From IMG/VR virus record IMGVR_UViG_3300035659_000002: a DNA stretch of 64,000 nt; one strand, given 5' to 3'. Both the position numbers and the translations under genes were made by a program. Source of the stretch: a virus (taxonomy: Duplodnaviria; Heunggongvirae; Uroviricota; Caudoviricetes). This document shows, piece after piece, positions 788-64,000 of the stretch; position 1 is the first letter of the stretch, and every line of letters starts with the position of its first letter. The notes beneath the pieces are model-generated. The model did not search any database. It was not told the DNA's origin and worked only from the letters and a program-made list of their open reading frames with translations.

Positions 788-1116
788 CAGCGATAGAGGT
801 CCATGCTTATTATTGCCGATTTTGTGGCAAGCAAGTCGAGCAACGAGCGCGGCACGAACCACGATGCAAAAAAAATCCCATGAACATAGCAAAAAAACAA
901 CGTCGAGAAAAGGAACGCCGAGAAGATGAAAAACATCCAACGAGCGTGAACATGCTCGAAAAGCATATCCGATTCATCAACAAACTAACATGCGATGGCC
1001 TATTTGATAGCCAATCCAGCTTCATTCGGGATTGCATCGAATATGTCCTCAAGCATCCTGACATGATCGAGGCGATACAACATGAGAAAAAGGAGAATAG
1101 CAAACAACAATCCTAA
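784..1116 (+). CDS. Zinc finger plus ribbon-helix-helix (RHH) regulator
   Basis: N-terminal CRFC...HEPRC; C-terminal TSVNMLEKHIRFINKLTCDGLFDSQSSFIRDCIEYVL (strand-helix-helix); ATGA overlap with the upstream gene. Confidence 0.65.
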   Translation: MTAIEVHAYYCRFCGKQVEQRARHEPRCKKNPMNIAKKQRREKERREDEKHPTSVNMLEKHIRFINKLTCDGLFDSQSSFIRDCIEYVLKHPDMIEAIQHEKKENSKQQS

Positions 1117-26399: not shown

Positions 26400-26455
26400 G
26401 ATAAATATGCCTCGTGTGTGCATGTAAAGAGACAAGTGAATGAATCGGCACGGCA

Positions 26456-26464
26456 TTATATAAA
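26456..26464 (-). promoter_or_regulatory. TATA box (TTTATATAA)
   Basis: Consensus archaeal TATA upstream of 25476-26399. Confidence 0.55.
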
Positions 26465-40389: not shown

Positions 40390-42078
40390 TTAGAAAGGAG
40401 TAGGACCGCCCTTTACATACCCCGCACGTTCCATTGCACGCGAGACTTTTTTAAATTGCGTCCATCGTTTTGCAAGGTATCCACTTTCACCAGGTTGTTT
40501 ATGGATACCGGTTTCGGAAGCCATATCTCGGATTTGGCACGCACGAGCATAGATTTTCGGATAGGATAATTTCAATTGGTGATAGTATTGCCATGAAGCG
40601 AATGGACAAAGCATACAGCCGTGCCTACCGAAAAACTCGGAGTTAGGATTCCGTTTGATGTCATGTCGAGCAAGCATCGCCAGGTCATCCTCATGGGAGA
40701 GTTTGAACACCGGGAGCATGTCAAACACGCGCATGACTGAACGATTAGTTATTGTCCCGTTTTGCATGAGTCGTTGCCATTGATTCATGTCGGTTGATGG
40801 CCAATTAGCAAGCCATTCTTTACCACCACGCATGACCCGTTCTCCCAATGCTTGATTTTGCTTGGCTTTGGCCTTTTCTTCTTTTTCCCGTTTTTTTCGT
40901 TCCTTTTCCTCGGGTGTCTCTTCATACGGCGGAGGCAAGGATAAGAAACTCGGGGTTGCATAGGGGTTCAATGATGCCCGACCCTCCGACTGAAATGCTT
41001 GCATTCCCAAGAATTGAAGGATGTCCACGTAGTCGCCCGGTTCGAGTTTTTCATAGAAAATCTCCTTGAGAAGCTTCTTATACGGGTTCAATTTCATTTT
41101 AAGGGTACACCAACGCTTATCCTCACGAGGATACATGGCTGAACGCTCGTAATATGTCTCCGCGTCATCTTGCGGGACAACAACGACCAAGGGAATTTTC
41201 ACCTTGAAAATATTAGCCAATGCTTGCACGTAATATTTCACGTAGTCATATTCGTCCATTTGTTCGGTGGGCAATTCGGTGTAATAACAAAAGTCAAACG
41301 GGATGTGTAATTCGAGTAACATGATTAACATAGCAACGGAATGTTCGGCCCCGTGAATCGACACGATCCTGGCCAATCGTTTGGTCCTGATGACATCATT
41401 CGCAATGTTATCCAGGCCTGCACGGTCGATGCCAAATAGTTCCACGAGATGAGGTTTCCATTTATAAAAATAATCCTCGGTTTCTTCGGTCTTGCCTTCA
41501 ACGGCCCATGGTATTTTAAAGCTATCATCAGGTTGAATATTCAATCCTCTTATATAATTTCTATTTGCCTCGATGCGTGCAACGTTCGCCGGATCAAGAA
41601 CGGGAACTTTATAATGCTCGCCCCGTTGGGACATCACACCCAATGAATCATTATGTAAATCAAATTCCCGCGTGGTTTCAAAATGGGTTACCATGTCATG
41701 AAATTCTTTCGGCCATCTTGCAACCTGGTCTGGAGTGAAGATCGCCGTAATCTTTTCCTTTTCTCCTTCTATTTCATCGAGATGCATATCAACGATGGCA
41801 TCCGCTTGATCCCCTCCAATAATCTTGAATCCTTTTTCTGTTAACATGTCAGGGTGTGTTTTTTGAATTATCATATCGTGTATTTTAACTATTTGATTCG
41901 TGAATTTATTGACAAAAAACCCGGTGATGATTCCCTTCTTGACCGGTGATAATTTCACGAATACCTCGGACCTTGAATATTTTTTTGACATCCTGGCCTT
42001 GTGGATTGTTGCTTTGGTAGTTTCGGACGCGGCCGCTCGGTTCTTTCGACCGTGTTTTCTTTTGAGATATTCCGACAT
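40390..42078 (-). CDS. PAPS-reductase-like (HUP fold) protein with a degenerate PP-loop and an N-terminal extension
   Basis: RWCTLKMKLNP, LGMQAFQSEGRA, PVFKLSHED and RHGCMLCPF motifs; SGGKDS replaced by IHGAEHS. Confidence 0.75.
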   Translation of the reverse strand: MSEYLKRKHGRKNRAAASETTKATIHKARMSKKYSRSEVFVKLSPVKKGIITGFFVNKFTNQIVKIHDMIIQKTHPDMLTEKGFKIIGGDQADAIVDMHLDEIEGEKEKITAIFTPDQVARWPKEFHDMVTHFETTREFDLHNDSLGVMSQRGEHYKVPVLDPANVARIEANRNYIRGLNIQPDDSFKIPWAVEGKTEETEDYFYKWKPHLVELFGIDRAGLDNIANDVIRTKRLARIVSIHGAEHSVAMLIMLLELHIPFDFCYYTELPTEQMDEYDYVKYYVQALANIFKVKIPLVVVVPQDDAETYYERSAMYPREDKRWCTLKMKLNPYKKLLKEIFYEKLEPGDYVDILQFLGMQAFQSEGRASLNPYATPSFLSLPPPYEETPEEKERKKREKEEKAKAKQNQALGERVMRGGKEWLANWPSTDMNQWQRLMQNGTITNRSVMRVFDMLPVFKLSHEDDLAMLARHDIKRNPNSEFFGRHGCMLCPFASWQYYHQLKLSYPKIYARACQIRDMASETGIHKQPGESGYLAKRWTQFKKVSRAMERAGYVKGGPTPF

Positions 42079-49112: not shown

Positions 49113-49265
49113 TCACATCTTCTTGGTAAAGACATCTGGTTTTTGCACGCCAAGCATTTCACGTGAGCATTTCTGACATATTAACTCCGATTTGCCGTCG
49201 ATGATCACTAACCTGACATCCCGAGGTCGAAACCCGGTGGTCTTGCATTTCGAGCATTGAACCAT
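49113..49265 (-). CDS. 50-aa Zn-finger microprotein
   Basis: Hand translation MVQCSKCK...LICQKCSREM...; TAATG overlap with the upstream gene. Confidence 0.55.
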   Translation of the reverse strand: MVQCSKCKTTGFRPRDVRLVIIDGKSELICQKCSREMLGVQKPDVFTKKM

Positions 49266-50989
49266 TACCAATCACCTGGAAAATCTCGTTTGCCCGGATG
49301 TGCATCGAACCATTTTTTCTTAACTTCCGACTGACGTTTCCAATGTTCCGATTCCGATTCCAATCCCCACCGATCCTTTTGAAAAGTACAAAGCACCGGG
49401 AATTGAAAATCCTTGGGCAAATTCCCGGCCTTGATCAAGTTCCTGATTGCTTGCAACCGGTGATGGCCTCCCATTTGAAAGAAACTTGCCGGGTCTTTGC
49501 CCCCTTGTGGAAAGCATTCGATCATGAGCGGCTGCGCAGGGTCGTACCCGCGTTCCTTGATCATTTTTTCGATCTGGATGATCTTGTTGTAATGCCTGGG
49601 CATGGCTTCCATTGCGTCTTGATTGGCAAAAAACTTTTTGCCACTACCAATATATTTATCAACAAAATCTCTTGCTCGTTCTTCCCAATATGATCCTGCC
49701 AGTTCAGCTTCCGTGAACATGCCAAATCCATAGACATCTTTATCCACCATCAATGCCACGCCTTCACCTTCGCTTTTCAATTGATTCATGATGATAGCTT
49801 GAACTTCCGGCGGCCATTGATCGTAGGGACGGGCTTGCGTGAATATCTCCGATATTTTCGGGGTATAGGTGGTTGATAATCGACGTGCTGCCCAGGCAAA
49901 ATGGTTCTTGATTTTCCTGGCGATTTTTCGTTTATATTCGAGCGTGTACTTCTGCGATAGCTCGGTGAGCGAGGTTTGGCCTTTCGGGATTTTCTTGGTC
50001 GGGTGTTTTTCTTCGATATTGGCAAGGATATCGAATTGTTGGACCGCGCGGTTCGAGTAACGCCATTTGCCCGACATCGGCCATACCTTGATCGCATTCG
50101 TTCGTGCTTTTTTTAATTCTTGTCTACGCAAGGTTTGTTCTTTTCTCCTTATCCTTGCCCGCAATACCGGGTCATCAAATATCACCATGACCGGGATCTT
50201 GAAATCAGGTGGTAATCTTCCTATTGCCATCAAGTTCCGCACGGCCTGGATTCTATGATTGCCATAGGCAATAGAAATCAAGTGTGCATTATCATTCTCG
50301 TGCCAGGAATACCCCACGGTGATTGGATAATCATCGTTATAGCCATCCTTGATTATCGAGTTCTCGATCTTGGTTTGTCTCTCGAAATGTTTCTCTATAT
50401 CTTCTGCATCGGATGAACCAGGTTCTATATATTCCCATGCTGACATCGGTAATTTTTCAGGGGCGATCTTGATGAATTGGTATCGCAATCCCTCGTAGTA
50501 TTCCCTCACGGTTCCGTAGATATCATCATCAAACATGTATTCATTGGTTAATTCCCGAATGATGATATCACGTTGTCTTTGTGTTAAATCCTTGAAGAAG
50601 ATACCTTCAGATTTCTTGAATTGTTTTGCAGCACGTTTTGAATATGTTTCCCTGATTGTCGCTTTTGCATTTCGTGAATTGAATTGATCGACCAAGAACT
50701 GTTGATTAACGGGAAATACATGAGCAATGCTACTAGTCGCATTATGTCGATTGATTTTTTTAACTTGCCAAGAATCGCACGTTTCTATTTGCGTGACTTC
50801 AGCATGATATAAGCCACAATACCCACCGACATGATCGCTGTATTTACAATTGATACATGCATGAAACCCTTTGGGATTGAGCTTCGGGGCTGCTGTTCCG
50901 AGAAACCATGCAACAAAACCGCTTGCACGTCGCAGGCCAGGAATCTGATCACGATTCACGATTCCAATTTCCACGGATTTATTTTTCAT
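49265..50989 (-). CDS. Protein with an N-terminal Cys cluster and two ParB/Srx-like domains
   Basis: IENSIIKDGY..YPITV...GNHRIQAVRNL and IEKMIKERGY..QPLMI...GGHHRLQAIRNL. Confidence 0.8.
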   Translation of the reverse strand: MKNKSVEIGIVNRDQIPGLRRASGFVAWFLGTAAPKLNPKGFHACINCKYSDHVGGYCGLYHAEVTQIETCDSWQVKKINRHNATSSIAHVFPVNQQFLVDQFNSRNAKATIRETYSKRAAKQFKKSEGIFFKDLTQRQRDIIIRELTNEYMFDDDIYGTVREYYEGLRYQFIKIAPEKLPMSAWEYIEPGSSDAEDIEKHFERQTKIENSIIKDGYNDDYPITVGYSWHENDNAHLISIAYGNHRIQAVRNLMAIGRLPPDFKIPVMVIFDDPVLRARIRRKEQTLRRQELKKARTNAIKVWPMSGKWRYSNRAVQQFDILANIEEKHPTKKIPKGQTSLTELSQKYTLEYKRKIARKIKNHFAWAARRLSTTYTPKISEIFTQARPYDQWPPEVQAIIMNQLKSEGEGVALMVDKDVYGFGMFTEAELAGSYWEERARDFVDKYIGSGKKFFANQDAMEAMPRHYNKIIQIEKMIKERGYDPAQPLMIECFPQGGKDPASFFQMGGHHRLQAIRNLIKAGNLPKDFQFPVLCTFQKDRWGLESESEHWKRQSEVKKKWFDAHPGKRDFPGDW

Positions 50990-52621
50990 TTATCGAGACC
51001 TCTTATTCCCTTGGAGAAATGCAAGAACCTTGTCCTCGTTCAAGTCAGCCCGCATAAATATATCCTTCGTGCGAAGCACGTTCTCGCCCATCTTCAATGC
51101 AGGCACGGAAAATATATTATATATCAATGCTTCGGTTTCCGTGTCCGGATCCTCGTCAACCATACGTTTTACATGCTTGATCCCGTGCTTGTCCAGGAAC
51201 GCGATCAATGTCGGACATTTATGGCAATCCTTCGTGGTGAACACTTCAACGATGCCAATGGTAGTTTTGTTTTCTTTTCTCTCTTCCTTTGCCCATTCCT
51301 TTTCTTGTAGCATCATGGCATATCGTGGATAACTCGGCAAATGCCAAATTTGATAGGGCTTGATCGTGCCATCCTGGATATCAGTCTTGAAATTTCTGAT
51401 ACTCGTATAGATGAGACCAGATTCTCGGCTTGACATAAATTCCCGCATCAATTGTTTATAGATAACACTTTCTTTTTGCTTGTCAGTAAGAACCGTCTCC
51501 GGTTCAGTTCCTTTGATAGCAAATTGTCCTTCGATTCTATATCCCGCATTGATAAATGATCGTTTTACTTGCTCGGAGTATTCTTTTTGTCCACTTTCCA
51601 TTCGTTGCCCCGCCAAGAGCTGCTGCTTGATGTAATTATTCCATCTATCTCGTGCAATGTCCACCCAATTGATTTTCTCGTATTCGGTTTTGTTCGTGCG
51701 AGGGAATGCCTTGTCGAACTCGTCACGCAAGGCCACGTAACCAATATATTTATCTCCAAGTTTATAAGTGTATTCAGGATGCGAAAACACATGAATGTCA
51801 TTGATGATGCTCGTGTCCACGAATCGCTTATCTTCTAATACATTGATGGCATTGATGAATGTTACCCAATCAATACCCTGGTTTTGCATATCATTCCAGA
51901 TCGCATAAAATGGAACGGCACCACCATAACGGTTACCGGCATTGGCCTTCTCGATGGCATTCCGCAATATCAAGGCAAATTTCTCGTCGGAGATGGATGC
52001 TTTGTTTTTCCGTTTCTCGGGATGCGTGTCCCGTGGAAACCATGCCCAGGTCTCGCCGGGCTTTATCTCCCGAAAATCCAATCCCGCACGATTCAACGTG
52101 GCTCGCCATTCTTTTTTAAATGCTTGGCTCGTGTTATTGCCAGCAGCGTTCTTCCGTGCCTTGTTATAGGCCGCTTCCATGGATTGTGAAGTTACAAATT
52201 CCTCGTGGGCCGAAAGCAATAGAATCCATCGCACTTTTCCATTCGGCCCTTCCCAGAGAATCACGCCGGGATAAAACAATGACACGTTGCCCATGTCAGC
52301 AGGGGATGGATGACACGATGCAATGTTCATGTCTTTTCGATACGCAACGTGGGTGTGAAATTGCATCTCGTAATCATGTTCGTGAAAAAACGGGGAAGCC
52401 ATGCTCGTGCCTTTGACTTGCTCGTACCCCGTGATACCGGATTGACCTTCTTCAAAATCCAATCCTCCCGATATCTCGATCTTGTTGGTCCTGGCTATTT
52501 TTTCGAGGTCTTTCAAGAATTTAGTACCGAATTTCTTTCGCATGAGTTTATTTTTATTTTTTTGAACAGCTTTGTCATATTCAACCTCGAACCACGCGAG
52601 ACTTGCTTTTTGATAGGGCAT
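50990..52621 (-). CDS. JAB/MPN metalloprotease domain, wHTH-like middle region and C-terminal glutaredoxin domain
   Basis: E(ISGGL)...FHTH...PSPAD JAB motif; VEVFTTKDCHKC...SVPAL glutaredoxin motif. Confidence 0.75.
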   Translation of the reverse strand: MPYQKASLAWFEVEYDKAVQKNKNKLMRKKFGTKFLKDLEKIARTNKIEISGGLDFEEGQSGITGYEQVKGTSMASPFFHEHDYEMQFHTHVAYRKDMNIASCHPSPADMGNVSLFYPGVILWEGPNGKVRWILLLSAHEEFVTSQSMEAAYNKARKNAAGNNTSQAFKKEWRATLNRAGLDFREIKPGETWAWFPRDTHPEKRKNKASISDEKFALILRNAIEKANAGNRYGGAVPFYAIWNDMQNQGIDWVTFINAINVLEDKRFVDTSIINDIHVFSHPEYTYKLGDKYIGYVALRDEFDKAFPRTNKTEYEKINWVDIARDRWNNYIKQQLLAGQRMESGQKEYSEQVKRSFINAGYRIEGQFAIKGTEPETVLTDKQKESVIYKQLMREFMSSRESGLIYTSIRNFKTDIQDGTIKPYQIWHLPSYPRYAMMLQEKEWAKEERKENKTTIGIVEVFTTKDCHKCPTLIAFLDKHGIKHVKRMVDEDPDTETEALIYNIFSVPALKMGENVLRTKDIFMRADLNEDKVLAFLQGNKRSR

Positions 52622-52656: not shown

Positions 52657-53742
52657 TCATAAAGTAGTGAAATGTTCAAGGGTTATATTCCGCTTGAGCA
52701 TTTGGTCTTTTTCGATCTGTTTCAATAATCGTTCTGCCGCTTGTGAATAATACGTCGATCCGGTTTTCAACCATTCAATATAAACAGGTAATTGCACGTT
52801 CTTATTGGCCGCTTCCAAAATTTCGATGCGATCTTTTCCACCGATTAAATAAACCTTTTTATGGCCTTCATCTTTTAATTTGTGCAAGAACCGAGATAAT
52901 CGTTCAATGAATATCTCCCGTTGCCCTGGTCTTTTTTTCAACAATTTTGGTGGGTATTCATAATCAGGCATCTGGTCCTCGATTCTATATGGAATGACGG
53001 TCAGGGGTTCGGACATGATGATTTTTTCAATATACGGGTTTCTCGTTATTGCTGACATCATTTGATGGCTCATACTTTGCGATATCTTCTTTTTTCCATA
53101 TTTCTCCCGTGTTTTCCCGGCTAATGCACAAGGCAAGAAAACGATTGGTTTTTTCGTGTCGAATTTTTCATTCATGACGCGTTCAAACCATGCCACGTTC
53201 GGCGGGTTGTTAAAGTCATCATTGAACGGCACCGTTTTTTGTGGGACGGGCATTGTACGGTTTTCAATCACCATTTTTTTCCATTCCGCACGAGCAAGAT
53301 TCTCCAGATCACTTATTCTATATCCCTTTCCCGTTGCCATGGATAATTTCCTGATGCGGGTATTCCAATTCTTTTTGAGTAGCCAGCTCAATCCTAATGT
53401 GCCTTGAATGTAATTGATTGCTTCGTCAATTTTGAGATATTCGGGTTTCATTTTTTCCCGTGTTTTAGCATCGACATGATGACCTACACGTTCAAGTACA
53501 TGTATATAAGTTTCAAGTTTATCATTCAGATATTTTCTCCCTTTGATGATGCGTTCTTCAATCATGTATGGCCTTGCCAGGTCACCACTGATCACCAGGA
53601 TTTGTTTTGTGGCCAACAGCTCCACGCTTGTCGTTTGTAACAAGACACCCTTGACCGGGACGGGTTGTCCGGTTTCCATGGTGATAAAGAATCCCGTGAT
53701 ATTTCTCGTGCCGGTGTTGGTTTGCACGAAGGCATAGGTCAT
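52657..53742 (-). CDS. Shared N-terminal tag domain plus DUF5591/ArcS-like domain
   Basis: Start MTYAFVQT; cargo FLPC...SQSMSH...SEPLTVIP...YEYPP matches the DUF5591 domain of archaeosine-synthase-type proteins. Confidence 0.8.
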   Translation of the reverse strand: MTYAFVQTNTGTRNITGFFITMETGQPVPVKGVLLQTTSVELLATKQILVISGDLARPYMIEERIIKGRKYLNDKLETYIHVLERVGHHVDAKTREKMKPEYLKIDEAINYIQGTLGLSWLLKKNWNTRIRKLSMATGKGYRISDLENLARAEWKKMVIENRTMPVPQKTVPFNDDFNNPPNVAWFERVMNEKFDTKKPIVFLPCALAGKTREKYGKKKISQSMSHQMMSAITRNPYIEKIIMSEPLTVIPYRIEDQMPDYEYPPKLLKKRPGQREIFIERLSRFLHKLKDEGHKKVYLIGGKDRIEILEAANKNVQLPVYIEWLKTGSTYYSQAAERLLKQIEKDQMLKRNITLEHFTTL

Positions 53743-53746
53743 GCTT

Positions 53747-54574
53747 TTACCACCGTTTCGGCACCGGATACTCCTTGGCTTGTTTCTCGTTGACCACGAT
53801 GAATTTTGCATTAATGTCTAATGCTCTTCCCCCGATTTCCGCTTCCTTCATGCTTGGATAAGGTTGAGGTGATAGAAATTTGTCATTAGAAGGATAATAG
53901 TGGAATCCACCATCATCAAGCCATCGAATAACATAATAGCCCGTGGGAAACTTGTTTAAAAAATAAGCATTCCCTTTATCTGTTTCCCCGGTTATCTTGA
54001 TAGTTTCATCCGGTTTTAGTTCCACGAGAGGTTCGGGTTTATATTCCAAATACCAGGTGTCATCCCAAGCAATATACCAAACCGTCGCCCCGTACCTCCC
54101 CACTTCTGCGATTGCCTTTTCTCGATCATGTATTCTTTTATAAAAAGATAATTCGGCACTCGATGATTGCTTGTCAACGCCGGTGACCGTGTAGATCGCG
54201 TGGTCCTGTTCAGCCGTATGTTTTTCCTGGATGAATACGGAATCACCGGGCTTGGGCATTTCAGATGTATGCCGTTCCAACGTGATTTTCACTCGAATGT
54301 CTTTTCCCGGATATGTAATGATTGCCAGGGACGGTTTCTCGATCACGGTTTGCCCCGGTGTTTTCACGGATGGAGTTATAGCGGCGATGTATGGTTCGGC
54401 ATCTTGGCCGCTAATAACTAAAATTCCCTTGGTTGCCAATAGCTCCGCACTTGTTGTTTGTAACAAGACACCCTTGATCGGGACAGGTCGCCCGGTTGTT
54501 TGATCGACAAAGAACCCCGTGAGTATTTTTCCTTTCTTGTTGGTTTGCACGAATGTAAATAACATGTAATTCAT
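53747..54574 (-). CDS. Shared N-terminal tag domain plus unknown beta-rich cargo
   Basis: LFTFVQTNKKGKILTGFFVDQTTGRPVPIKGVLLQTTSAELLATKGILVISG. Confidence 0.8.
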   Translation of the reverse strand: MNYMLFTFVQTNKKGKILTGFFVDQTTGRPVPIKGVLLQTTSAELLATKGILVISGQDAEPYIAAITPSVKTPGQTVIEKPSLAIITYPGKDIRVKITLERHTSEMPKPGDSVFIQEKHTAEQDHAIYTVTGVDKQSSSAELSFYKRIHDREKAIAEVGRYGATVWYIAWDDTWYLEYKPEPLVELKPDETIKITGETDKGNAYFLNKFPTGYYVIRWLDDGGFHYYPSNDKFLSPQPYPSMKEAEIGGRALDINAKFIVVNEKQAKEYPVPKRW

Positions 54575-56004
54575 CTCGATTCTTCCACTACGCGGAACTC
54601 GAACTCTTTAATCTTTTGTTCAGGAATGGGATAATTGGTTCGGATGCGAAATTGTGTCCATACATCATAACCCGTTGGATTTTCTATTTCAACCAAATAA
54701 TGCTCTATCTCGGATCGTTCGATGCCAGGGTTTCCTTCCAAGATGGCATCTTCAATATATTTGATCGGGACACCGGCAAGACCAATTGGCCGATGCGTGC
54801 CATAGAGATATTTTCCTGGCTTGGGCTTGGTTTTTTTCTTCGGTGGTTCTTTGCCAAGTTTTCGCATCAGGTCATCTCTTTTCTTTTCCAATTCCTCGAT
54901 ACGTTCCTTTTTCTTTTTCCGTTCATACGATCCGCCGCCACGCATTCCACCAAAAGAACGAACACGGGTTTTCCGGGAACGTTCCGATTTTAATTCTTGC
55001 TCGGTTTGTTTCAATTCCAATTCGAGCAAATGAGTTTCCCATGGTTTTCCCGGCGAGACCACTTCCAACAGGGCTTTTGCCCGTTTCTCGAACCGTGCAT
55101 ATTTTTCTCTTCCAATATATTGATGCAATTCCCTTTCGATGATTGGCAATTGCTGTGTTGCTTGGTACTTGGTCATTTTTACAACCGGATAGTGGAGATT
55201 GAAAATAGCGTTATAATCAGCAATCGTCATTAGATGATATTCTTTAAGAATTTTTTTAGGCAATTCCACGTTGATAGCAAATATATCCGCACCTCCACGC
55301 GTGAACTCCTTTGACATTCCATGTCCGGTTGGAAAATACGTGCCGCTCGTTACTAGAACCGTTTCCACTTCCAAGCTTTCAACGCCTAGCTCCTTGGCAA
55401 TGGCATCTGAAAAACCAGGTTTCTCATAAGTTTCATACAAGGTCAAATAAGGGTCTGCAACATAGAGCCATATTTTTTGCACGCCAGGGACAGGCTCGAT
55501 AAACCAACGTCCAATTGCTGATAATTGTTTAGGATCAATATAGCTGGGCATCAAACGAAATGTTTTTTTAACCTTCTCGTAATAATCCATCACGCAATCG
55601 AACGTGGGGCAATTCACCACCTCCATGGAGAGCTTGCTATGTTCGCTATTATCAATTGCGATAAAATTAGTTTTTCCCTGGAGAACGATGAACACACGAG
55701 AATCGGAATCAGTTTGATATTTTGCGAACCCAAGCCCGATATAATCTTCGAGCTTGGTCACCCCCTTCGATGGCTCGACACGCGTGATTGGTTTGTCGGG
55801 TTGTTTCAGCTTGATAACCATGTCGATATATGGCCTTGCTTGCTCGCCGCTAATTACCGGGATTTGCTTGGTTGCAAGTAGTTCCGCATTTGTCGTTTGA
55901 AACAAGTTTCCTTTGACCGGGACGAGCTTCCCGTTTTCAGCGTTGATGAAGAATCCGGTGATCGTGGTTTCTTTTATCCCTGTTTGAACGAATGCGAATG
56001 TCAT
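54571..56004 (-). CDS. Shared N-terminal tag domain plus unknown multi-domain cargo with a coiled coil
   Basis: MTFAFVQTGIKETTITGFFINAENGKLVPVKGNLFQTTNAELLATKQIPVISG. Confidence 0.8.
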   Translation of the reverse strand: MTFAFVQTGIKETTITGFFINAENGKLVPVKGNLFQTTNAELLATKQIPVISGEQARPYIDMVIKLKQPDKPITRVEPSKGVTKLEDYIGLGFAKYQTDSDSRVFIVLQGKTNFIAIDNSEHSKLSMEVVNCPTFDCVMDYYEKVKKTFRLMPSYIDPKQLSAIGRWFIEPVPGVQKIWLYVADPYLTLYETYEKPGFSDAIAKELGVESLEVETVLVTSGTYFPTGHGMSKEFTRGGADIFAINVELPKKILKEYHLMTIADYNAIFNLHYPVVKMTKYQATQQLPIIERELHQYIGREKYARFEKRAKALLEVVSPGKPWETHLLELELKQTEQELKSERSRKTRVRSFGGMRGGGSYERKKKKERIEELEKKRDDLMRKLGKEPPKKKTKPKPGKYLYGTHRPIGLAGVPIKYIEDAILEGNPGIERSEIEHYLVEIENPTGYDVWTQFRIRTNYPIPEQKIKEFEFRVVEESR

Positions 56005-56027
56005 GGATCATCACCATGAAAAAATGA

Positions 56028-57542
56028 TTAAAGATATTGCATGAACTCGGCCAAGGGCATCCATGGAATATCGTGCTGTTTGGCCGCGTCTATCCTGGTT
56101 TGTCCGTAACCTTCACCTATCACGAGAAGCTTGGTTTTACCACTCGGGGCTTTGAAAATTCCACCCTTGGCCACGACCATGGCTTCCAATTGATCCTTGG
56201 TGTAATCAGGATGCGATCCGGTAATGTACAAGGTGAGGCCTTGCAAGGTCGGGATATTCCCGGTGAATCGTCGTAGATCCTCAAGCCGCGCTCCCGTGAC
56301 CGCCGCTTTTTTCGTCGTGGTCACGGGCTTGGCTACTAGCGTGGTTGTCGATACCTTTTCTTTTTTAGGCTTGCCTTCAGCCCTGATAGGAATACCAACG
56401 CCTGGAATTTCAGCTCCCTCGAACCCCGTGAATCCGGGAGGAGCGATTGTCACACCGGTGGTTGCCAATTTAACTCCCGTCGGTTTTTTGATTTTCATTT
56501 CTTGTGCCTCGTATTCCTTGTTTTTTGCATCATTATAATTGATTATTTCTTCAATGGTTTTTCTCAATTCTTCCACGGTTGTATCAGGAGGAAGAAGAAG
56601 ATGAGTGCTTTTAAAAAAAGTCAATTGCTCGGAAAGATCATGTTTATGGTGGAGATACCATGGATCTTTATGGCTGATCGAAAAACCTTGATAAGACCCT
56701 ACAATTTTAATATCCTTATATTTGCCCCTGGAATGAAAATGATCTCCATTTCCATCAGATTTAGTGCATCTGAATCCCAACGCTTCCAGGATGTCATAAC
56801 CCTTTGGTTCTTCCAATTGCTCGGCCAATTTCTCGGCCTCGGCCTCGCCGGGTAGCTCGGCAATCTCCAAGGGTTCTTTGATTATTTGTTCACCCTGGGC
56901 GAAGGTTTGTTCGATTTGTTTTTCCATAGCTGCCCTGCCGGTAAATGCTGCAAGAATGGCCCGAGCAGCAACACGATCTTTTTCCTTTTCCTCTTCAGGA
57001 AGATTCTTGTACGGGGTATTGGCCAGGGCAAGACGTGTTTCTCGTTTTTGTGGTTTTTCCTTGTACACGGGATCATCATAGGTTTTAGCCACGCGCCCCC
57101 ATCCTATATGGCTTGCAGCTGCCAGCTTCTCGATATCAGTAATGCCATTCATGATTTTTGATAAGATGGCTTTTGCACTCGATTGCCCGGCTGCAGCTCC
57201 GAATGTCCCTGGTTGTGATATGCCATAATGATAAGCGGCATCGAGGGCTTGGCTTTGAACTGCTGCGTATTGCTCGATCATTGCCTTGGCGATTTTGATT
57301 TTTTCTACTTTGGGTTGCTTGACCGCTTTCTTCATGGGCTTCAAGGGCATCCCCTGGGCCTTGAGATATGGCCGCGCCTCCTCGCTGCGGAGGATCTTGA
57401 TCTTCTTGGTGTTTAACAATGCTTTGGTCGTCGTTTGTAGCACGGTCCCTTTCACGGGAACAACGCGGCCGGTTTCGACCTCGATAAAGAATCCGGTGAT
57501 TGTCTCACCTTGCTTTCCTGTTTTCACGAATGCGAACGTCAT
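56028..57542 (-). CDS. Shared N-terminal tag domain plus RyR-like domain and C-terminal BRCT domain
   Basis: Tag MTFAFVKT...; ASHIGW...PYKNLPEEEKEKDRVAARAIL (RyR domain); LQGLTLYITG...LEAMVVAKGG...TKLLVIG...AAKQHDIPWM (BRCT). Confidence 0.8.
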   Translation of the reverse strand: MTFAFVKTGKQGETITGFFIEVETGRVVPVKGTVLQTTTKALLNTKKIKILRSEEARPYLKAQGMPLKPMKKAVKQPKVEKIKIAKAMIEQYAAVQSQALDAAYHYGISQPGTFGAAAGQSSAKAILSKIMNGITDIEKLAAASHIGWGRVAKTYDDPVYKEKPQKRETRLALANTPYKNLPEEEKEKDRVAARAILAAFTGRAAMEKQIEQTFAQGEQIIKEPLEIAELPGEAEAEKLAEQLEEPKGYDILEALGFRCTKSDGNGDHFHSRGKYKDIKIVGSYQGFSISHKDPWYLHHKHDLSEQLTFFKSTHLLLPPDTTVEELRKTIEEIINYNDAKNKEYEAQEMKIKKPTGVKLATTGVTIAPPGFTGFEGAEIPGVGIPIRAEGKPKKEKVSTTTLVAKPVTTTKKAAVTGARLEDLRRFTGNIPTLQGLTLYITGSHPDYTKDQLEAMVVAKGGIFKAPSGKTKLLVIGEGYGQTRIDAAKQHDIPWMPLAEFMQYL

Positions 57543-57548
57543 GATCAA

Positions 57549-58088
57549 TCATCTGCTTTTTTGCCAATTTTCATAATCAGATATAGTATATTCCAATTCT
57601 TTAGTTTTCGAGAATTTTTCAAAATCTCTTTTGATACGACCAATTTCATAATTAATATTGATGATTTCATTTCGATTATCAATGTCTTTAAAATTAGGAT
57701 CTTCAAAAATTGATCCGTCTATTGAATCAGGTATATATCCCCATGAATATAGCATCAAAGAAACACGATATTCCAATTGAAAGCCTCCTCCACCATGAGA
57801 AATGTCCCCTATCCAATCTTGCCCTGGAAATTCTTGTTTGACCGCTTCTGGATAAGATAATCCAAGTATTCTATCAAATAATGGATTGCTCGCATGAAGC
57901 ATCCTCCATAGAAATGCCCGTAGAGGAATTGCATCTATAATGGCAATGTTTTTGGTTGATAACAAAGGTTCTGTTGTCGTTTGAAATAGGATACCCTTTA
58001 CAGGAATTTTGCGATTGGTTTCTACTTCGATAAAGAAACCGGTGAGTATTTCATCCTGTTTCTTGACTTGCACGAATGCATAGGTCAT
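57549..58088 (-). CDS. Shared N-terminal tag domain plus short unknown cargo
   Basis: MTYAFVQVKKQDEILTGFFIEVETNRKIPVKGILFQTTTEPLLSTKNIAII. Confidence 0.8.
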   Translation of the reverse strand: MTYAFVQVKKQDEILTGFFIEVETNRKIPVKGILFQTTTEPLLSTKNIAIIDAIPLRAFLWRMLHASNPLFDRILGLSYPEAVKQEFPGQDWIGDISHGGGGFQLEYRVSLMLYSWGYIPDSIDGSIFEDPNFKDIDNRNEIININYEIGRIKRDFEKFSKTKELEYTISDYENWQKSR

Positions 58089-58098
58089 GATCAATCAT

Positions 58099-59697
58099 CT
58101 ATGATGCTTTGAGTTTTTCTAATTTCTTTAAAGCATGATCCCGTTTATCCATGAGTGCGCCAATTTGCCTTGCACGTATATTACCTTCAAAGGTCATATC
58201 CCCGACCGTGCCGTAGCTTTCTATCTCCTTTATTCGTTGGTCTATCCCTTTGATATCATCTTCAAGTTCTTTTATTTCAGATTCGACATTCTCGGCAGGC
58301 GGCTCCGGTTCCGGTTCTTTCATGAATTTCATCCAAGATAACGATTGCACGGCGGCCTTGGTTAATTGCCTTTGCCATGCCCCTTCCGTAGGCGACCAAT
58401 GATAACCGTTATGTTTGAGTTCATCCCGGATGTTCTCCGGTGGTTTGCCATCAAAAAATAATTGTAACCGATTGGCCTCCACGTTCTCGACCACGCGGAC
58501 CCCGGCCTTCGTATATTCCTTGCTGCCACCGGCATAGGTGGACACTCGTGCTTGCTCTTCGGCAATACGATCCTTCACGCGCTGCATTTCTTGGAGTTGG
58601 CTTTGCAATCGAAAATGTGGATACCCTAATCGGCCCGACATGTCAGGTTTGAGTAGCTTGGTTGCTGTATCTTGCGAATAACCAAGTTTCACGAGTTCTT
58701 TCAAGGTATCTATGCCTTTTTTCTTGAGAACCCTATTCGTTGCTTTCATGAGTTCTTGATCGTGTTCCAATTTGACAAGCTTGGCCTTTAATTGCTCGAC
58801 TGCCTCCGGTGTCCCACCCCGTATCGGCCCGCTCGGGAGAACCTTGCTGATTGCCGTTTTCTCGGACATCTTTTTGAGCTTCAGTTCTTCACGCTTTTTT
58901 TCGATCAAGTCGATTTCGGCCTTGGCATCTTGAACGGTTGCATAAGGTGACCAATCAAGTACATTGCCCTCGATTTTATGGCCAGCTTTCACGCTACCAT
59001 CAACAGATATCATGATCACCCAATCCTTATAATTAATGGTCTCGGGTTGAACGCTAAATTGTTTCTCATGTTCTCGTTTTTCTCGATATAATCGTTCAAT
59101 AACCATGCGATCAATCAGATCGAGGTCAGGATATTTCACGAGCTTGCCCGCATCGAGCTGCAAAGCCCATGCTTCCAATGCCTCGCCCTGGGCTTTTCGT
59201 GCGGCCAAACTTATAGGGTCGATTTGGCCTTTGCCAGGTCTCTTTGCACGGTATTCAACATCGAAAAGATAATCCTTTGCTTTTTGGTGAGCATCACGCG
59301 CGGCCTCCCGAATAATTCCCTTTTCCCATTTCTCCGCATTCTCTAGTTCAAAACCCAGATCGGTCGTGGTTTGTAACCGTTGGATTTCATCCCTCGCATG
59401 TTTTTCATGCTGCGTTCCATCCAGGATCTTGGCAATAGTTTCCAACCGTGCTATCATTTCCGCAACACGTTCTGGCAACCCGAATGATCGTTCGGGAATG
59501 TTCGGTGGAAGGGCAGCTATGTAAGGCATGGAAGCTTCACCCGTGATGATCGGGATCTGCTTGGTTGCTAACATCTCCGCGCTCGTGTATTGAAAGAACT
59601 TTCCTTTAACTAGAACGTATTTTCCCGTTTGCGCGTTCACGAAAAATCCGGCAAGTGCTTTATCTTTTGTTCCTGTTTGCACGAACATGAATGTCAT
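58099..59697 (-). CDS. Shared N-terminal tag domain plus a DUF3560/polyvalent-protein-type C-terminal domain
   Basis: Tag MTFMFVQT...; NRLQLFFDGKPPENIRDELKHNGYHWSPTEGAWQRQLT is typical of the C-terminus of DUF3560-type proteins. Confidence 0.75.
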   Translation of the reverse strand: MTFMFVQTGTKDKALAGFFVNAQTGKYVLVKGKFFQYTSAEMLATKQIPIITGEASMPYIAALPPNIPERSFGLPERVAEMIARLETIAKILDGTQHEKHARDEIQRLQTTTDLGFELENAEKWEKGIIREAARDAHQKAKDYLFDVEYRAKRPGKGQIDPISLAARKAQGEALEAWALQLDAGKLVKYPDLDLIDRMVIERLYREKREHEKQFSVQPETINYKDWVIMISVDGSVKAGHKIEGNVLDWSPYATVQDAKAEIDLIEKKREELKLKKMSEKTAISKVLPSGPIRGGTPEAVEQLKAKLVKLEHDQELMKATNRVLKKKGIDTLKELVKLGYSQDTATKLLKPDMSGRLGYPHFRLQSQLQEMQRVKDRIAEEQARVSTYAGGSKEYTKAGVRVVENVEANRLQLFFDGKPPENIRDELKHNGYHWSPTEGAWQRQLTKAAVQSLSWMKFMKEPEPEPPAENVESEIKELEDDIKGIDQRIKEIESYGTVGDMTFEGNIRARQIGALMDKRDHALKKLEKLKAS

Positions 59698-59709
59698 TTT
59701 TAATAAACC

Positions 59710-60720
59710 TCAATTCATACTATAAACACGAATTACCTTGGCCTCCATTGCCTCGCTACCAGAGATTCTTGCGTCCTGAACTATTTTCACGAATGCCTTG
59801 TAGCATTCTACCTCCATCTTGCTTGGGATATTAATAAAATGACCCTCTCTAGTGATCTTCTCGACGCGGGAATCCCTGGAAAAATTAATATCAATGTATG
59901 TCTGATATTGATACCGGTCTTTTTTTGTATAATTCACGAGGTCAGGATGTCGTGACTGAAATAATCTCATTTCCTGACCCAATTTACTTCGAGCATCGAA
60001 CGTGATACCAACAACCACGGTTTCATAAAAACCGTGACCCTCGTATCCGGGCTGTCCATGCATCGGCCATAATTCAATTAACTTGTTTATGCTAGCTTCG
60101 AGCGCGCGGTCAAGCACGTCTTGATATGAAGATGCACGTTCGCTCGGTAAGTCATGCATTTTAAAAGCGGCACGACGTAATTCATAACCTCCGCTGATCG
60201 GTTTTCCCAAGGTGAGTTCAGGACCAGGAGCGGCCTTGCCCTCTCGAATAGCAGCAAGCCTGGCCTTCGCAGCTGCGATCCGCTGTTCATACGGGTCGAT
60301 TAGTTTCTCCGGTGTTTCCGTGAAATATTCCTTTTCATAGATTGGCTCTTCGGTGAGCAAGGGTTGTGGCTTTGCCTTCACGGTCTCTTTTTCGACATGC
60401 TTCCTGGATTCTTCTTCCAATCCCTTCTTGTATGCTGCTTTCGACATAATGACATCGGTTTGCTTGTCAGGATCATGCAACAATATTTTACCAAATTTAC
60501 CAAGGAACTTGTTTGCACTATCCGCAGCGAGAATTTCAACCCCTCTACTTTGTAGCATATCATGCGTGCTAATATTCAATTCATTATTTCCGACCGGGAC
60601 TATTTTTCCGGTGTCGATGTCGAAAAACGAACCTTGGAGTCGGCCCAGGTATAATCCTTCCGCAGGCATCGTGCCAGGCCGGTCTAGTAGTTTGAGTATC
60701 ACGAATGCGTATCGTGCCAT
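59710..60720 (-). CDS. Divergent N-terminal tag domain plus unknown cargo
   Basis: Start MARYAFV; GSFFDIDTGKIVPV...DMLQSRGVEIL aligns with the tag. Confidence 0.75.
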   Translation of the reverse strand: MARYAFVILKLLDRPGTMPAEGLYLGRLQGSFFDIDTGKIVPVGNNELNISTHDMLQSRGVEILAADSANKFLGKFGKILLHDPDKQTDVIMSKAAYKKGLEEESRKHVEKETVKAKPQPLLTEEPIYEKEYFTETPEKLIDPYEQRIAAAKARLAAIREGKAAPGPELTLGKPISGGYELRRAAFKMHDLPSERASSYQDVLDRALEASINKLIELWPMHGQPGYEGHGFYETVVVGITFDARSKLGQEMRLFQSRHPDLVNYTKKDRYQYQTYIDINFSRDSRVEKITREGHFINIPSKMEVECYKAFVKIVQDARISGSEAMEAKVIRVYSMN

Positions 60721-60754
60721 GAGATTTTCACCTGGAAAATAAAAATTATATTTA

Positions 60755-62500
60755 TTATGCTTCAAGTTCCTTCTCTTCAAGTTCCTCCGGTATTTCCTTC
60801 TCTTCAATTTCCGGTTCGCCGCCTACACGGGGAGCGAGCATGTATGTTATGGTTGACCGATTATTCGGGTTTCCATAATCTTTCACGCTTACAAGCATGA
60901 CGTTATCTCGAATCAAGGCGACCTCGACACGCGGGGCATCCATTGGCTGAATGATGGATTTACTTTCGCCAAAAACCAGGTTCTTGAACATACGCGCAAA
61001 AAGCACGGCATTGAAATGACTACCTACCGGTTTGTGAGGTGATTTCAATACCTGTTCCGGTATTATTGCCGCACGAAGTTCGCTCCGGTTTTCGGTGAAT
61101 TTCTCGTCTTTATAAACGCTCAAGTAGGTTATTTGCAAGGTTCTCTCGCCAAGCATTGCTTCGATCTGTTTCACCCACGCATCCCTAGTTGCCTTGGTAA
61201 CATTCGATTTTTTTCCGATGCCTAATTCATTGACCTTATCTTTAATTTCTTGCAAGGTCATGGCTTGTTTTACCGTCACCTGGGTAGGGTCATATTCGAC
61301 AAACAAGATCCTGTCCACCGTTTCTTCTGTTTCCCTTTTCTTTCCCATCCTTTCATTTTCACATGCTCGGTTGCCGATCAACAATGCCCCGGTGAGCGCG
61401 TTACCAATATTGTCTTTGCCACTGCCTAATGGAAACACGAGGATCGCATTGGCCTTTTCTATCATCGTGGTTTGAAGGTCATCGAATGCCTTTGCTTCTT
61501 TCATGTAATTTGCTTGAATGGTACTCATGTCATGAAGTTTGACCGTGAATATTTTTTTATACGTTTGGCCTCCTTTTTGGATCGGTTCAAACCCCATATA
61601 GTTATGAGCAAGATCAATGGAGAACCTGATTTCCTCGATAATCAATTCTTTTCGCATTTCTTTGGCCGCTTCGCTTCCCGAACCATGCGTTCCCGCAGCT
61701 GCTGTTAATCGAAAACGATTGGTTACCTTGATCATGTCTACAATATTAACAGCAAATTGAACGGGGGATTGAGGTGGATTGAACTCGGAACATGATAAAG
61801 GTGATATGATCAATTTAGCTCCGATGTTATGACCATTATCAAACACGGTTGTTGTAATCCCTGATGCATCCCAGGTGAAAATCGTTTGGTCATCAATGCG
61901 GCCCAATGCAACAAGTGCAGCTTTGAAAACTTTGGTGTCAATTATCATTGATGCCGTCGTAACGAATCGTTTTTGAGATGCAAATATCCATGATTCCTTT
62001 CGAGCCAATGCTTGTTCCATTGACATCGAACCGGCTTGAGCTTTTGCACGTTGGGCTAACAATTCTTGATATTCCTCTTTCTCTTCAGAAGCGCGCTTGG
62101 CCTCGACTTTTCGTTCGCTCAATGTTTTTTGTGTTTGAGCCTCTGCTATTAAACCCTTTTGGGCTTCAGTTATCATTTGTTCTTTTTGCTTTTTCCATTC
62201 TTCCATGGTGAGAAGCTTGAACGGATAAGGTGATGGTGGCCCTGAAAGTGCAAGTACCCATCCTAACTTTTCCAGGAACTTATCCGTGGCTTCCGAGTCT
62301 GATATATCACCAAACCCTTCGCCCATTCCTTTGCTGGCTACAAGAACGCCGCTGTTTTTCAACACTTGTGGATTGGCATAATTGATATCTCGCCCGTGAA
62401 CCGGAATGAGCTTGCCGCTATCCATGTCTATGAACGAACCCGTAATGGTTTGATAGTCATCTGATCTGCTTAATACCACGAACACGTATTTTGCCATCAT
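60755..62500 (-). CDS. Divergent N-terminal tag domain, coiled linker and PCNA-like sliding-clamp domain
   Basis: FKAALVALGRIDDQTIFTWDASGITTTVFDNGHNIGAKLII...VQFAVNIVDMIKV and C-terminal HFNAVLF...ITYMLAPRV match PCNA N- and C-terminal motifs. Confidence 0.75.
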   Translation of the reverse strand: MMAKYVFVVLSRSDDYQTITGSFIDMDSGKLIPVHGRDINYANPQVLKNSGVLVASKGMGEGFGDISDSEATDKFLEKLGWVLALSGPPSPYPFKLLTMEEWKKQKEQMITEAQKGLIAEAQTQKTLSERKVEAKRASEEKEEYQELLAQRAKAQAGSMSMEQALARKESWIFASQKRFVTTASMIIDTKVFKAALVALGRIDDQTIFTWDASGITTTVFDNGHNIGAKLIISPLSCSEFNPPQSPVQFAVNIVDMIKVTNRFRLTAAAGTHGSGSEAAKEMRKELIIEEIRFSIDLAHNYMGFEPIQKGGQTYKKIFTVKLHDMSTIQANYMKEAKAFDDLQTTMIEKANAILVFPLGSGKDNIGNALTGALLIGNRACENERMGKKRETEETVDRILFVEYDPTQVTVKQAMTLQEIKDKVNELGIGKKSNVTKATRDAWVKQIEAMLGERTLQITYLSVYKDEKFTENRSELRAAIIPEQVLKSPHKPVGSHFNAVLFARMFKNLVFGESKSIIQPMDAPRVEVALIRDNVMLVSVKDYGNPNNRSTITYMLAPRVGGEPEIEEKEIPEELEEKELEA

Positions 62501-64000
62501 GCTTCGACCTGTGCTTCTTTTTTCTTTTTAGATTCTTCTTTCTTTTGTCTTTTTTTCTCCCGTCGATCCAAAGCATCCTCCTTTTGTTCAATCATTTCTT
62601 GGGTAATGCTCCATCCGACGGGTTTGTGATAAATATGGATAAGATCCGATTTACCGGCGTTGTCATACGTGATAACAGCGCGATCAATTAGTTCAAGTTT
62701 ATAGAATTGTAAATTAGGATCAAAATAACTTTTGACATAGATATGTCCATCCATGGCAACACGATTGACAATTCGAGCCATTTGGTTTGATGGTCTTTCA
62801 TTCCCTTCTTCTTCCTCTTCTTCTTCGGAGGTTTCTTGCATTATTTTCAAGTATTCAGGGGATAGATAGTTTTTCCATTCCAAACCACCAATCACCCGTT
62901 CTTTTAAAATGTTGGTTTTGACCGTGCTAGAACCTAACCCCTCGCATCCATTAATAATAATGACATCATGAATACTATCGCCCATTGCATTGAATTGATC
63001 CATGGTCACCGGGACACAATTTCCAAACCGCTCGGCAGGTTTATCCGTGATCACGATGCCGTTGCTCGTTCTATTCATGTTGAAATATTTTTCGATCATG
63101 GCATGTTCTTGGATTGATATACCACCCGTCCCAACGAACCATGGCACGAGTTTGAGATTATCCCCTCTTGGTTTCAACCACGTGTTTTCATAGAACTCCA
63201 GGGAATATTGCATCGGTTTCATGGGCTTGTATTGCCATGCCTCGAACATGGTAAATCGACGGTAACCACCGAATAAGGTCGCCTCACCCGCAATGAATTG
63301 AAGTTTGGGATGCCTGATGCTTCGCCAATTTTTCGATAGTATTATCCCATTTTGATTAAGGAGAGGCAAGCATTCATTCACGAGCCATCGGATAAATTTA
63401 TCCTCGATGCCCGTTTCTATGTTCCATTTAGCCGTGCCATATTTATAATCGAATTCATCCGAATATGGTGGATCAAACAAGATTAAATCGAATTTATAAT
63501 TATCAGCTTTGCACGCAGCAATATATTTTTGTACCGTTGTTAGGACATTCGCATGAGTCGGGACAGCCACTTTTTTTTGAATTTCAGAAATGGTTTTCAT
63601 TTTGGGCTGTCCGGTTTCTCGGGATATTACCGGTTTCCCGGTTTTCTTGTTGAGTACCATTTCCTCGCCAATGATCACCCGTAGCTTGGGAATAATGGTT
63701 GTTTCATTAACATCAACGCGAGTCGTGCAATAATCTGAACTACCACAGAATAAATGCACGTCTTTACCACTAGCTAATCTCATGCAAGAATCAGGAAACG
63801 GCATGGCCCGTCCAGCAGCGGTTTCTTGATTTTTTAGATAAATAATGCTTTCAACAAAATGCTCTTCATCCGGGACAAACCCACCAAGATATTTGGCTTT
63901 TTTCATGCCACTCCCAAGGATGAATAATCCTTCAGTAGCATTGAGATAAGATGAGGGCACGGGTTCACCAATTCCTCTACTTCCAATTGCCGCTGCTTTG
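62497..64000 (-). CDS. Amino-methyltransferase-like protein (DPPY), probably 5-prime truncated by the window edge
   Basis: HLFCGS (motif I-like), FDLILFDPPY (motif IV), CLPLLNQNGIIL; the frame stays open to position 64000 (KAAAIGSRGIGEPV...). Confidence 0.75.
   Translation of the reverse strand, partial: KAAAIGSRGIGEPVPSSYLNATEGLFILGSGMKKAKYLGGFVPDEEHFVESIIYLKNQETAAGRAMPFPDSCMRLASGKDVHLFCGSSDYCTTRVDVNETTIIPKLRVIIGEEMVLNKKTGKPVISRETGQPKMKTISEIQKKVAVPTHANVLTTVQKYIAACKADNYKFDLILFDPPYSDEFDYKYGTAKWNIETGIEDKFIRWLVNECLPLLNQNGIILSKNWRSIRHPKLQFIAGEATLFGGYRRFTMFEAWQYKPMKPMQYSLEFYENTWLKPRGDNLKLVPWFVGTGGISIQEHAMIEKYFNMNRTSNGIVITDKPAERFGNCVPVTMDQFNAMGDSIHDVIIINGCEGLGSSTVKTNILKERVIGGLEWKNYLSPEYLKIMQETSEEEEEEEGNERPSNQMARIVNRVAMDGHIYVKSYFDPNLQFYKLELIDRAVITYDNAGKSDLIHIYHKPVGWSITQEMIEQKEDALDRREKKRQKKEESKKKKEAQVEA

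Follow-up and report, generated by a model that had tools for sequence, protein, structure and literature searches.

A shared N-terminal domain on at least 14 genes of an uncultivated sediment virus, a possible docking module for replication and DNA-modification proteins

Why should a virus place the same small domain at the front of gene after gene whose remaining parts are unrelated? The question is raised by IMG/VR record IMGVR_UViG_3300035659_000002, a virus of the class Caudoviricetes. We analysed a 64,000-nucleotide stretch (the window) of its genome of about 137 kb, together with a few contigs that overlap or resemble it. An earlier note, made from the letters of the window alone, had described eight consecutive genes sharing an N-terminal domain fused to unrelated cargoes. 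We call this domain the tag and the genes g1 to g8 (Table 1). All eight open reading frames (ORFs) were present, back to back on the minus strand between 52657 and 62500, and a tag of about 62 residues could be aligned across them with few gaps, positions F5, V6, G17, F19 and L43 being invariant. Relative to the tag of g3 (the 54571 gene), the other close copies were 62, 55, 54, 43 and 58% identical, and those of g7 and g8 (the 59710 and 60755 genes) 24 and 31%, which bears out the division into six close and two divergent copies. The g7 tag carries a 13-residue insertion.

A hidden Markov model (HMM) of the eight tags, run against the six-frame translation of the window, found an independent ninth copy in the gene at 40390-42078 (E = 4e-11), here g9. 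The earlier note had missed both this copy and the continuation of the array past the window end. All-against-all BLASTP of the post-tag parts of the window's nine tagged genes returned no similar pair at E ≤ 1e-3, so the cargoes are indeed unrelated. As the position of the tag fixes the start of each gene, the likely start codons lie at 53742, 54565, 57542, 58088 and 60720. Two of these, 53742 and 60720, replace starts at 53811 and 60807. The tag-based starts match the independent gene calls from which P0001-P0003 derive, as well as the orthologue P0016. With the ORFs present, the tags alignable, a ninth copy found and no pairwise similarity among the cargoes, the observation of a shared tag is confirmed, and the set extends beyond the eight genes first described.

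How far does the array reach? Contig L001 (JGI sample 3300035701) matches the window end at about 99% identity and extends 4.1 kb further. The order of the genes, read in the direction of transcription, follows from a Logan contig: P0011-helicase-252-522-376-514-132-144-505-g8 ... g1, genes without a name being given by their length in residues. The total is at least 14 tagged genes in the genome: the eight of the array, g9 and five beyond the window end. The gene that begins at 62497 had been guessed to carry a tag as well; its full N-terminus on L001 has none, which refutes the guess. From this methyltransferase-like gene through g1 to 49265, the junctions were 4-36 nt or overlapping ATGA, and none exceeded 40 nt. 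Judged solely by this tight spacing, the array is probably one transcription unit together with the helicase gene.

Four small proteins (P0011, P0015, P0024 and P0025) consist of a tag, a Pro-rich linker and a conserved C-terminal motif of about 20 residues. In two genomes, this one and L003 (4199-4582), a gene of this kind lies immediately upstream of the gene for an untagged SF2 helicase, and its product may be a bridge or adaptor that links the helicase to the tagged proteins. The g8 tag differed between the window (62303-62500) and L001 (5668-5870) by four amino acid changes in about 65 residues, in strains that are about 99% identical, against one change in the adjoining 505-aa methyltransferase-like gene; it may be evolving faster than its neighbour.

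We then asked what kind of domain the tag is. Predicting its structure by AlphaFold2, one of the checks that the earlier note had proposed, gave a confident fold. The pLDDT was 89.1 with nine sequences and 87.8 with 33, the topology was the same, and all five models of the second run reached at least 86. The predicted domain has a hairpin (strands 3-11 and 14-21), a further strand (36-39) and two helices (40-45 and 53-64). No Pfam or PHROG family matched consistently among the 33 tags, the best isolated matches (Pfam E = 0.068, PHROG E = 0.0036) occurring in one member each. The best Foldseek E-values were 0.26 against PDB, 0.036 against AFDB clusters (an uncharacterised protein) and 0.014 against BFVD, and the ESM Atlas gave partial alignments with TM ≤ 0.58. 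None of these fold matches rose above background, and no convincing structural relative emerged. The weak look-alikes were generic beta-beta-beta-alpha units (RNase H/ASKHA) and small chromo or Sm-like domains, which are leads and not memberships. The earlier note, which had recognised no family for the domain, was borne out in this. The tag is predicted with confidence to be an autonomously folding domain without recognised relative. It is a new protein domain family; the principle of a constant address module with variable cargo is already known. What stands out is the presence of 14 clients in one genome, a sliding clamp among them.

The copies are not recent. Among the six close copies the synonymous divergence (dS) exceeded 1, being saturated or undefined, the non-synonymous divergence (dN) was 0.28-0.63, and nucleotide identity was 49-66%. 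Saturated dS with such dN values indicates that the tags are old paralogues kept as protein, under purifying selection, and not as a DNA repeat. A DNA-level repeat or recent gene conversion was accordingly rejected as the cause of their similarity, given the nucleotide identity and the saturated synonymous sites.

The cargoes that could be identified are listed in Table 1 and were supported to differing degrees. For g8, which the earlier note had called a PCNA-like clamp, a PDB profile search matched PCNA over the N-domain (E = 3e-4), and the Atlas model aligned with archaeal sliding clamps over 245 residues (TM 0.88 by target); there was no Pfam PCNA match at E ≤ 0.1. As modelled, the g8 cargo has the two-domain PCNA fold over about 250 residues. 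The DUF5591/ArcS-like label of g1 was reproduced (Pfam DUF5591, 2e-6; NCBIfam ArcS alpha, 2.8e-6), and its tagged orthologue on L004 is 35% identical over 341 aa. For g4, labelled RyR plus BRCT, the BRCT part stood (PHROG 3869 NAD-ligase C-terminus, 5.7e-9; NCBIfam LigA C-terminus, 6.6e-7; Pfam BRCT_2, 0.017), while the RyR match was weak (E = 0.008), below the Pfam cut-off. The DUF3560-type label of g6 could not be recovered by that name; residues 285-454 matched PHROG 19458 ("primase" by annotation; 3.4e-39), and there was a further match to PHROG 6744. Outside the array, the cargo of g9 matched PHROG 424 (4.6e-15) and NCBIfam PRK08557 (4.5e-7) and is PAPS-reductase-like. The untagged 505-aa gene with a DPPY motif had a PHROG DNA methyltransferase match at 1.8e-4.

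No family was found for the g5 cargo in Pfam, PHROG or NCBIfam, an ESM Atlas search with the g3 cargo gave rows with TM < 0.3 only, and the functions of the g2, g3, g5 and g7 cargoes were left unassigned by searches of the three family collections. Some of these parts recur in tagged proteins elsewhere. The g7 cargo is 58% identical to P0016, the C-terminal part of g3 is 52% identical over 82 aa to P0029, and the C-terminal module of g6 is also found in P0029. P0029, from a relative, joins the tag to LPD29 (2.7e-12) and to these C-terminal modules of g3 and g6. Two other proteins of relatives are P0008, with a tag, LPD1 (8.8e-17) and an HExxH motif, and P0028, with a tag and a C-terminus that is methyltransferase-like by eye only, Pfam giving no family. 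No LPD domain was matched in g1-g9, which as a rule join the tag to one recognisable cargo. In the tagged PrimPol P0007, the region between tag and PrimPol has an H-F-D-F motif and resembles the LigD phosphoesterase domain; on contig L009 a region of this type is fused to a JAB-like domain. As far as predicted domains tell, all identifiable tag clients act on DNA.

Could the tag itself recognise DNA? A reader of the element's DNA (possibly 7-deazaguanine-modified), or of a protein that coats it, would restrict the tagged enzymes to viral DNA, and this would suit both the DNA-directed clients and the ArcS-like and PAPS-reductase-like enzymes that the element encodes. However, the net charge of the tag ranges from -7 to +6 with a mean of +1.3, the alignment has no conserved basic patch, and no significant structural match to nucleic-acid-binding folds was obtained. 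Because its charge is low on average and variable, the tag is probably not a generic, uniformly basic DNA binder, and we consider the reader explanation improbable.

The distribution of the tag was assessed with a profile of nine tags (the eight and the g9 copy), searched against 1.84 billion representative proteins at E ≤ 1e-3. There were 32 matches, of which about 28 were genuine, and these belonged to this virus or to a handful of related contigs, all from sediment. On the question raised in the earlier note, whether the tag is restricted to this element family, it was thus found only in a small family of related contigs. Four matches (P0017, P0021, P0023 and P0030) were rejected as repeat or beta-propeller proteins that share only the hairpin motif G-x-F-x-D-x-x-T-G-x-P-V. 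Bacterial adhesins and lactonase-type beta-propellers contain a repeat motif that the first hairpin of the tag (G-x-F-x-D-x-x-T-G-x-P-V-P-V) mimics, so that searches by profile and by pattern alike return false positives (P0023, P0030 and L008 1199-10165). Pattern scans, which reach close relatives only, found no tag in IMG/VR viral contigs or in JGI metagenome contigs, and their sole match in GTDB genome contigs, a 2989-aa bacterial repeat protein with the same hairpin motif, was a false positive. A word-index search with residues 1-65 of g3 gave no match, the profile limited to short proteins matched P0026 only, and megablast of the array against GenBank phages gave no match. Among public runs, those containing the array are metagenomes of sediments and belong to at least three studies; no RNA run was listed among them.

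Where the tag occurs, it is almost always N-terminal. Of 30 full-length proteins, 29 had a tag beginning within residues 1-13, and many tags are followed by Pro/Lys/Glu-rich stretches. The exception among the 30 was P0020 (243 aa), whose N-terminus is a degenerate partial copy, with a complete tag at residues 75-140. Among the relatives, L003 has five tagged genes, including a stand-alone 60-aa tag, a Zn-finger protein and a PCNA-like protein, and its helicase is untagged. The tag-only gene lies at 8376-8558 of L003, a distant relative, between untagged genes and the tagged Zn-finger gene. L004 and L005 carry P0029 together with the tagged g1 orthologue, L002 carries P0028, and L006 and L007 carry P0018.

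P0018 (L006 5439-6623) is a tagged, lysine-rich basic orthologue of an untagged window gene, 24455-25408 on the minus strand, which encodes a 317-aa, very basic Lys/Ala-rich protein of histone-H1-like composition. The window gene is flanked by 25476-26456, a probable envelope glycoprotein with a predicted transmembrane (TM) segment and many N-x-S/T sites, and by 21746-24385, an 879-aa conserved protein. P0018 lies between the orthologues of the same two genes, next to a very large adhesin-like gene. Since P0018 is tagged and its window orthologue is not, and since P0029 joins modules that are separate in g3 and g6, the tag is portable, gained or lost on orthologues and combined with shuffled modules. 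In a tag tree, some tags grouped with those on the same cargo in other genomes (the Zn-finger trio, g7 with P0016, g8 with P0031) and others by genome (the L003 tags, that of its PCNA-like protein included despite orthologous cargo elsewhere, and the close copies of the window). Built from 60 columns, this mixed tree is weakly compatible with co-evolution of the tag with a genome-specific partner.

Partial clustering within genomes would also agree with tags that bind one another, homotypically or heterotypically, so that clients oligomerise or co-polymerise without a separate receptor. The stand-alone tag gene of L003 and the degenerate and complete tags in tandem in P0020 would fit such self-association, and a tagged clamp that forms trimers would display three tags at once. 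Nevertheless, tags within one genome fall to 20-30% identity, at which a common homotypic interface is harder to keep, and the explanation strikes us as hardly probable.

The main rival explanation is that the tag docks clients to the assembling particle or to the condensed genome, so that a kit of replication, DNA-modification and anti-defence proteins enters the next host. Such a tag would be a non-covalent counterpart both to the polyvalent proteins of phages and plasmids and to the signals that target proteins to the capsids of T4 and P1. Polyvalent proteins, known from phages and conjugative elements, join 2-15 domains in one polypeptide, with a repertoire that includes PrimPol, methylase, ParB and peptidase domains; they are predicted to be packaged or co-transferred with invading DNA, and their inferred role is to help it replicate and escape restriction (Iyer et al. 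2017, PMC5512222). LPD1 and LPD29, found in tagged relatives, were defined in such proteins (PMC5512222). Co-delivery is further favoured by P0029, a tagged multi-module protein, and by P0018, in which the tag heads a basic, lysine-rich protein whose gene lies in a module that looks structural. The repertoire shared with polyvalent proteins extends to PrimPol, methylase, the zincin-type HExxH motif and ParB-like neighbours. The modules here, however, are mostly separate genes that share a tag. None of g1-g9 is built as a polyvalent protein; P0008 (with LPD1) and P0029 (with LPD29 and two modules) are, and only P0029 is multi-module.

N-terminal addressing to capsids is known for T4 IPIII and P1 DarB, where short peptides of about 10-30 residues direct cargo into the capsid; the P1 Dar proteins share no consensus signal, and DarB is a DNA-modifying anti-restriction enzyme (PMC9024508). 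The tag is likewise an N-terminal element on diverse cargo, but those signals have no conserved fold, whereas the tag is a 62-residue domain, predicted to fold, on 14 proteins. Furthermore, the array forms one contiguous run with the genes for helicase, PrimPol and clamp, proteins that normally serve replication and not assembly, and no capsid, portal, protease or terminase gene was recognised in the window. We know of no precedent for a packaged sliding clamp, which also counts against virion loading, and overall we regard it as somewhat unlikely. The MuF polymorphic toxins of temperate phages also combine a constant N-terminal virus-associated domain with variable C-terminal cargo (PMC5576092). 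Unlike them, the tagged proteins carry DNA enzymes and scaffolds in place of toxins, a genome has not one but many tagged genes, and MuF (PF04233) was not matched in any tagged protein.

Which function do these observations favour? The earlier note had offered three: an address for a membrane ATPase translocon, virion loading, and a replication/modification factory. Nothing supported the translocon, the identifiable cargoes being cytoplasmic DNA enzymes. The factory fits best, because the gaps in the array are at most 40 nt and it continues upstream to the helicase gene, while virion loading keeps the standing given above. The architecture is address-like: the tag is almost always N-terminal, joined by linkers to mutually unrelated cargoes, portable, and in L003 encoded as a gene of its own. 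A factory is the likeliest destination because the array is tightly spaced up to the helicase, the clients include a clamp, a PrimPol and DNA-modification proteins, and a small tagged protein is encoded just upstream of the helicase.

We therefore favour, tentatively and as a possible reading, a docking module that recruits clients to a shared hub on viral DNA. The tag would be a lineage-specific protein-protein docking (adaptor) domain, attached by Pro/Lys/Glu-rich linkers to at least 14 proteins and giving every client one address, by binding either a shared viral receptor or other tags on replicating viral DNA. In that case the clamp, the PrimPol, the BRCT protein, DNA-modification enzymes and accessory proteins would act jointly as a replication/modification factory, and the small protein made of tag and C-terminal motif would be a candidate for linking the helicase to the tagged proteins.

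Several points weigh against the docking module. No receptor or hub was found in the sequence that was read, in which one repeat protein was examined. That protein (35087-37243, minus strand, 718 aa) has N-terminal TM helices and four FN3-like repeats of about 100 aa, read by eye, with a recurring L-T-W-Q-V-D ... Y-Y-Y-A pattern; its L003 homologue is 43% identical. It is probably a surface protein, and, being membrane-anchored and probably surface-located, it was rejected as a scaffold or hub. The clamp (g8) is itself tagged, so PCNA is not simply the hub. Finally, the tagged basic protein P0018 sits in a probable structural module, and the LPD1 and LPD29 domains of relatives fit virion loading.

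The functionally nearest analogue of a docking module is the dockerin, a module of about 60-70 aa on flexible linkers that gives many unrelated enzymes the address of a common scaffold and has a duplicated Ca-binding F-hand motif. Like dockerin, the tag is a small folded module linked flexibly to many unrelated enzymes. Unlike dockerin, it is N-terminal, sits on DNA-replication and DNA-modification proteins and is beta-rich without a Ca-binding repeat. It matches no Pfam family, Dockerin_1 included, and no cohesin-like repeated receptor was found in the sequence that was read. Replisome hubs offer a second comparison, with PIP boxes on PCNA, the SSB C-terminal tail and Ctf4 CIP boxes. There, too, many DNA enzymes gather at one hub, but the clients use short linear motifs, whereas here each client would carry a folded domain and the clamp is itself a client.

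Table 1. Tagged genes of the virus and the genes among or beside them, in the direction of transcription. Coordinates refer to the window unless a contig is named.
Gene	Coordinates	Strand	Length (aa)	Tag	Content and remarks
P0011	Logan contig 513-932		139	tagged	directly upstream of helicase gene
SF2 helicase			774	no tag profile match	L003 counterpart likewise untagged
array gene			252	untagged	between helicase and 522-aa genes
array gene	L001 3-662 (C-terminal part)		522	C-terminal half of tag only, internal, ~300 residues in (by eye)	
array gene			376	tagged	
P0007	L001 1819-3363		514	tagged	PrimPol, LigD-type
array gene			132	untagged	
Zn finger protein			144	tagged	CxxCxGxG-type Zn finger
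methyltransferase-like gene	62497..64000	-	505	untagged, inside array	DPPY motif; starts ~14 nt past window end (~64014); full N-terminus from near-identical L001
g8	60755..62500	-		~62303-62500 (tag HMM)	~100-aa charged helical linker, PCNA-like two-domain clamp (aa ~180-565), acidic tail
g7	59710..60720	-		divergent, ~60496-60720	cargo unknown; orthologue P0016 likewise tagged
g6	58099..59697	-		59512-59697	coiled region, domain matching PHROG 19458/6744
g5	57549..58088	-		57903-58088	115-aa cargo, function unknown
g4	56028..57542	-		57357-57542	Pro/Lys linker, weak RyR-like region, BRCT at C-terminus
g3	54571..56004	-		55819-56004	unknown cargo; C-terminal ~80 aa also in tagged LPD29 protein P0029
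g2	53747..54565	-		54380-54565	unknown cargo; gene call P0002
g1	52657..53742	-		53557-53742	DUF5591/ArcS-like domain; tagged orthologue on L004/L005
downstream gene	50990..52621	-		untagged	36 nt downstream of array; possible JAB/MPN-like N-terminal domain, glutaredoxin domain
g9	40390..41991	-		~41779-41970	outside array; likely start 41991; PAPS-reductase-like domain

The gene that directly follows the array was the best conserved of the neighbours. The N-terminal 205 aa of 50990-52621 are 75% identical to the product starting at L003 11331, against 20-35% for the other neighbours. An H-T-H ... S-P-A-D pattern in this part recalls JAB/MPN metallopeptidases, the Atlas gave Prok-JAB and MuF-like leads (TM ~0.45-0.6), Pfam gave no JAB match, and the C-terminus matches glutaredoxin (1.9e-6). 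Such a gene raises the possibility that the tag is a handle for processing or turnover, recognised by a viral or host peptidase or unfoldase so that the whole set is activated or removed together, with this JAB/MPN-like protein as one candidate. Its strong conservation between otherwise divergent relatives, and the C39-like peptidase domain at 46845-49109, would speak for a handle. However, no conserved cleavage motif was seen at the tag-linker boundary, the JAB assignment is a lead at the TM values just given, and a JAB-like domain also occurs on L009, where no tag was seen. The last point, together with Atlas look-alikes in many other viruses, also weakens the neighbour as a tag-specific partner, and we judge the turnover handle very improbable.

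The next gene, 49265-50989 (minus strand, 574 aa), has two copies of G-x-H-R-[IL]-Q-A-[VI]-R-N-L and is ParB/sulfiredoxin-like by eye, with no Pfam match at E ≤ 0.01. A TTTATATNGG box was considered as a marker of the array and rejected; with 17 matches against 26 expected it was not enriched and does not mark the array.

To date the tag family is known from one small clade of uncultivated sediment viruses only. Taken to its full extent, the docking module would make tag and receptor a virus-encoded hub-and-spoke assembly system, a cytoplasmic analogue of cohesin-dockerin. Such a system would bring together on the viral genome about 14 proteins of separate genes that serve replication, repair, DNA hypermodification and anti-defence, possibly carry them into the particle, and replace the covalent linkage of polyvalent proteins by a non-covalent address. 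We consider this extended proposal unlikely as it stands. If the docking address is true, it would represent an undescribed organisation of the machinery by which a virus replicates and modifies its DNA, with a portable folded domain connecting roughly a tenth of the element's genes to a single hub. The tag could then serve as bait for the hub and as a compact natural targeting module for tool building, and it would test whether the functions of polyvalent proteins can be assembled non-covalently.

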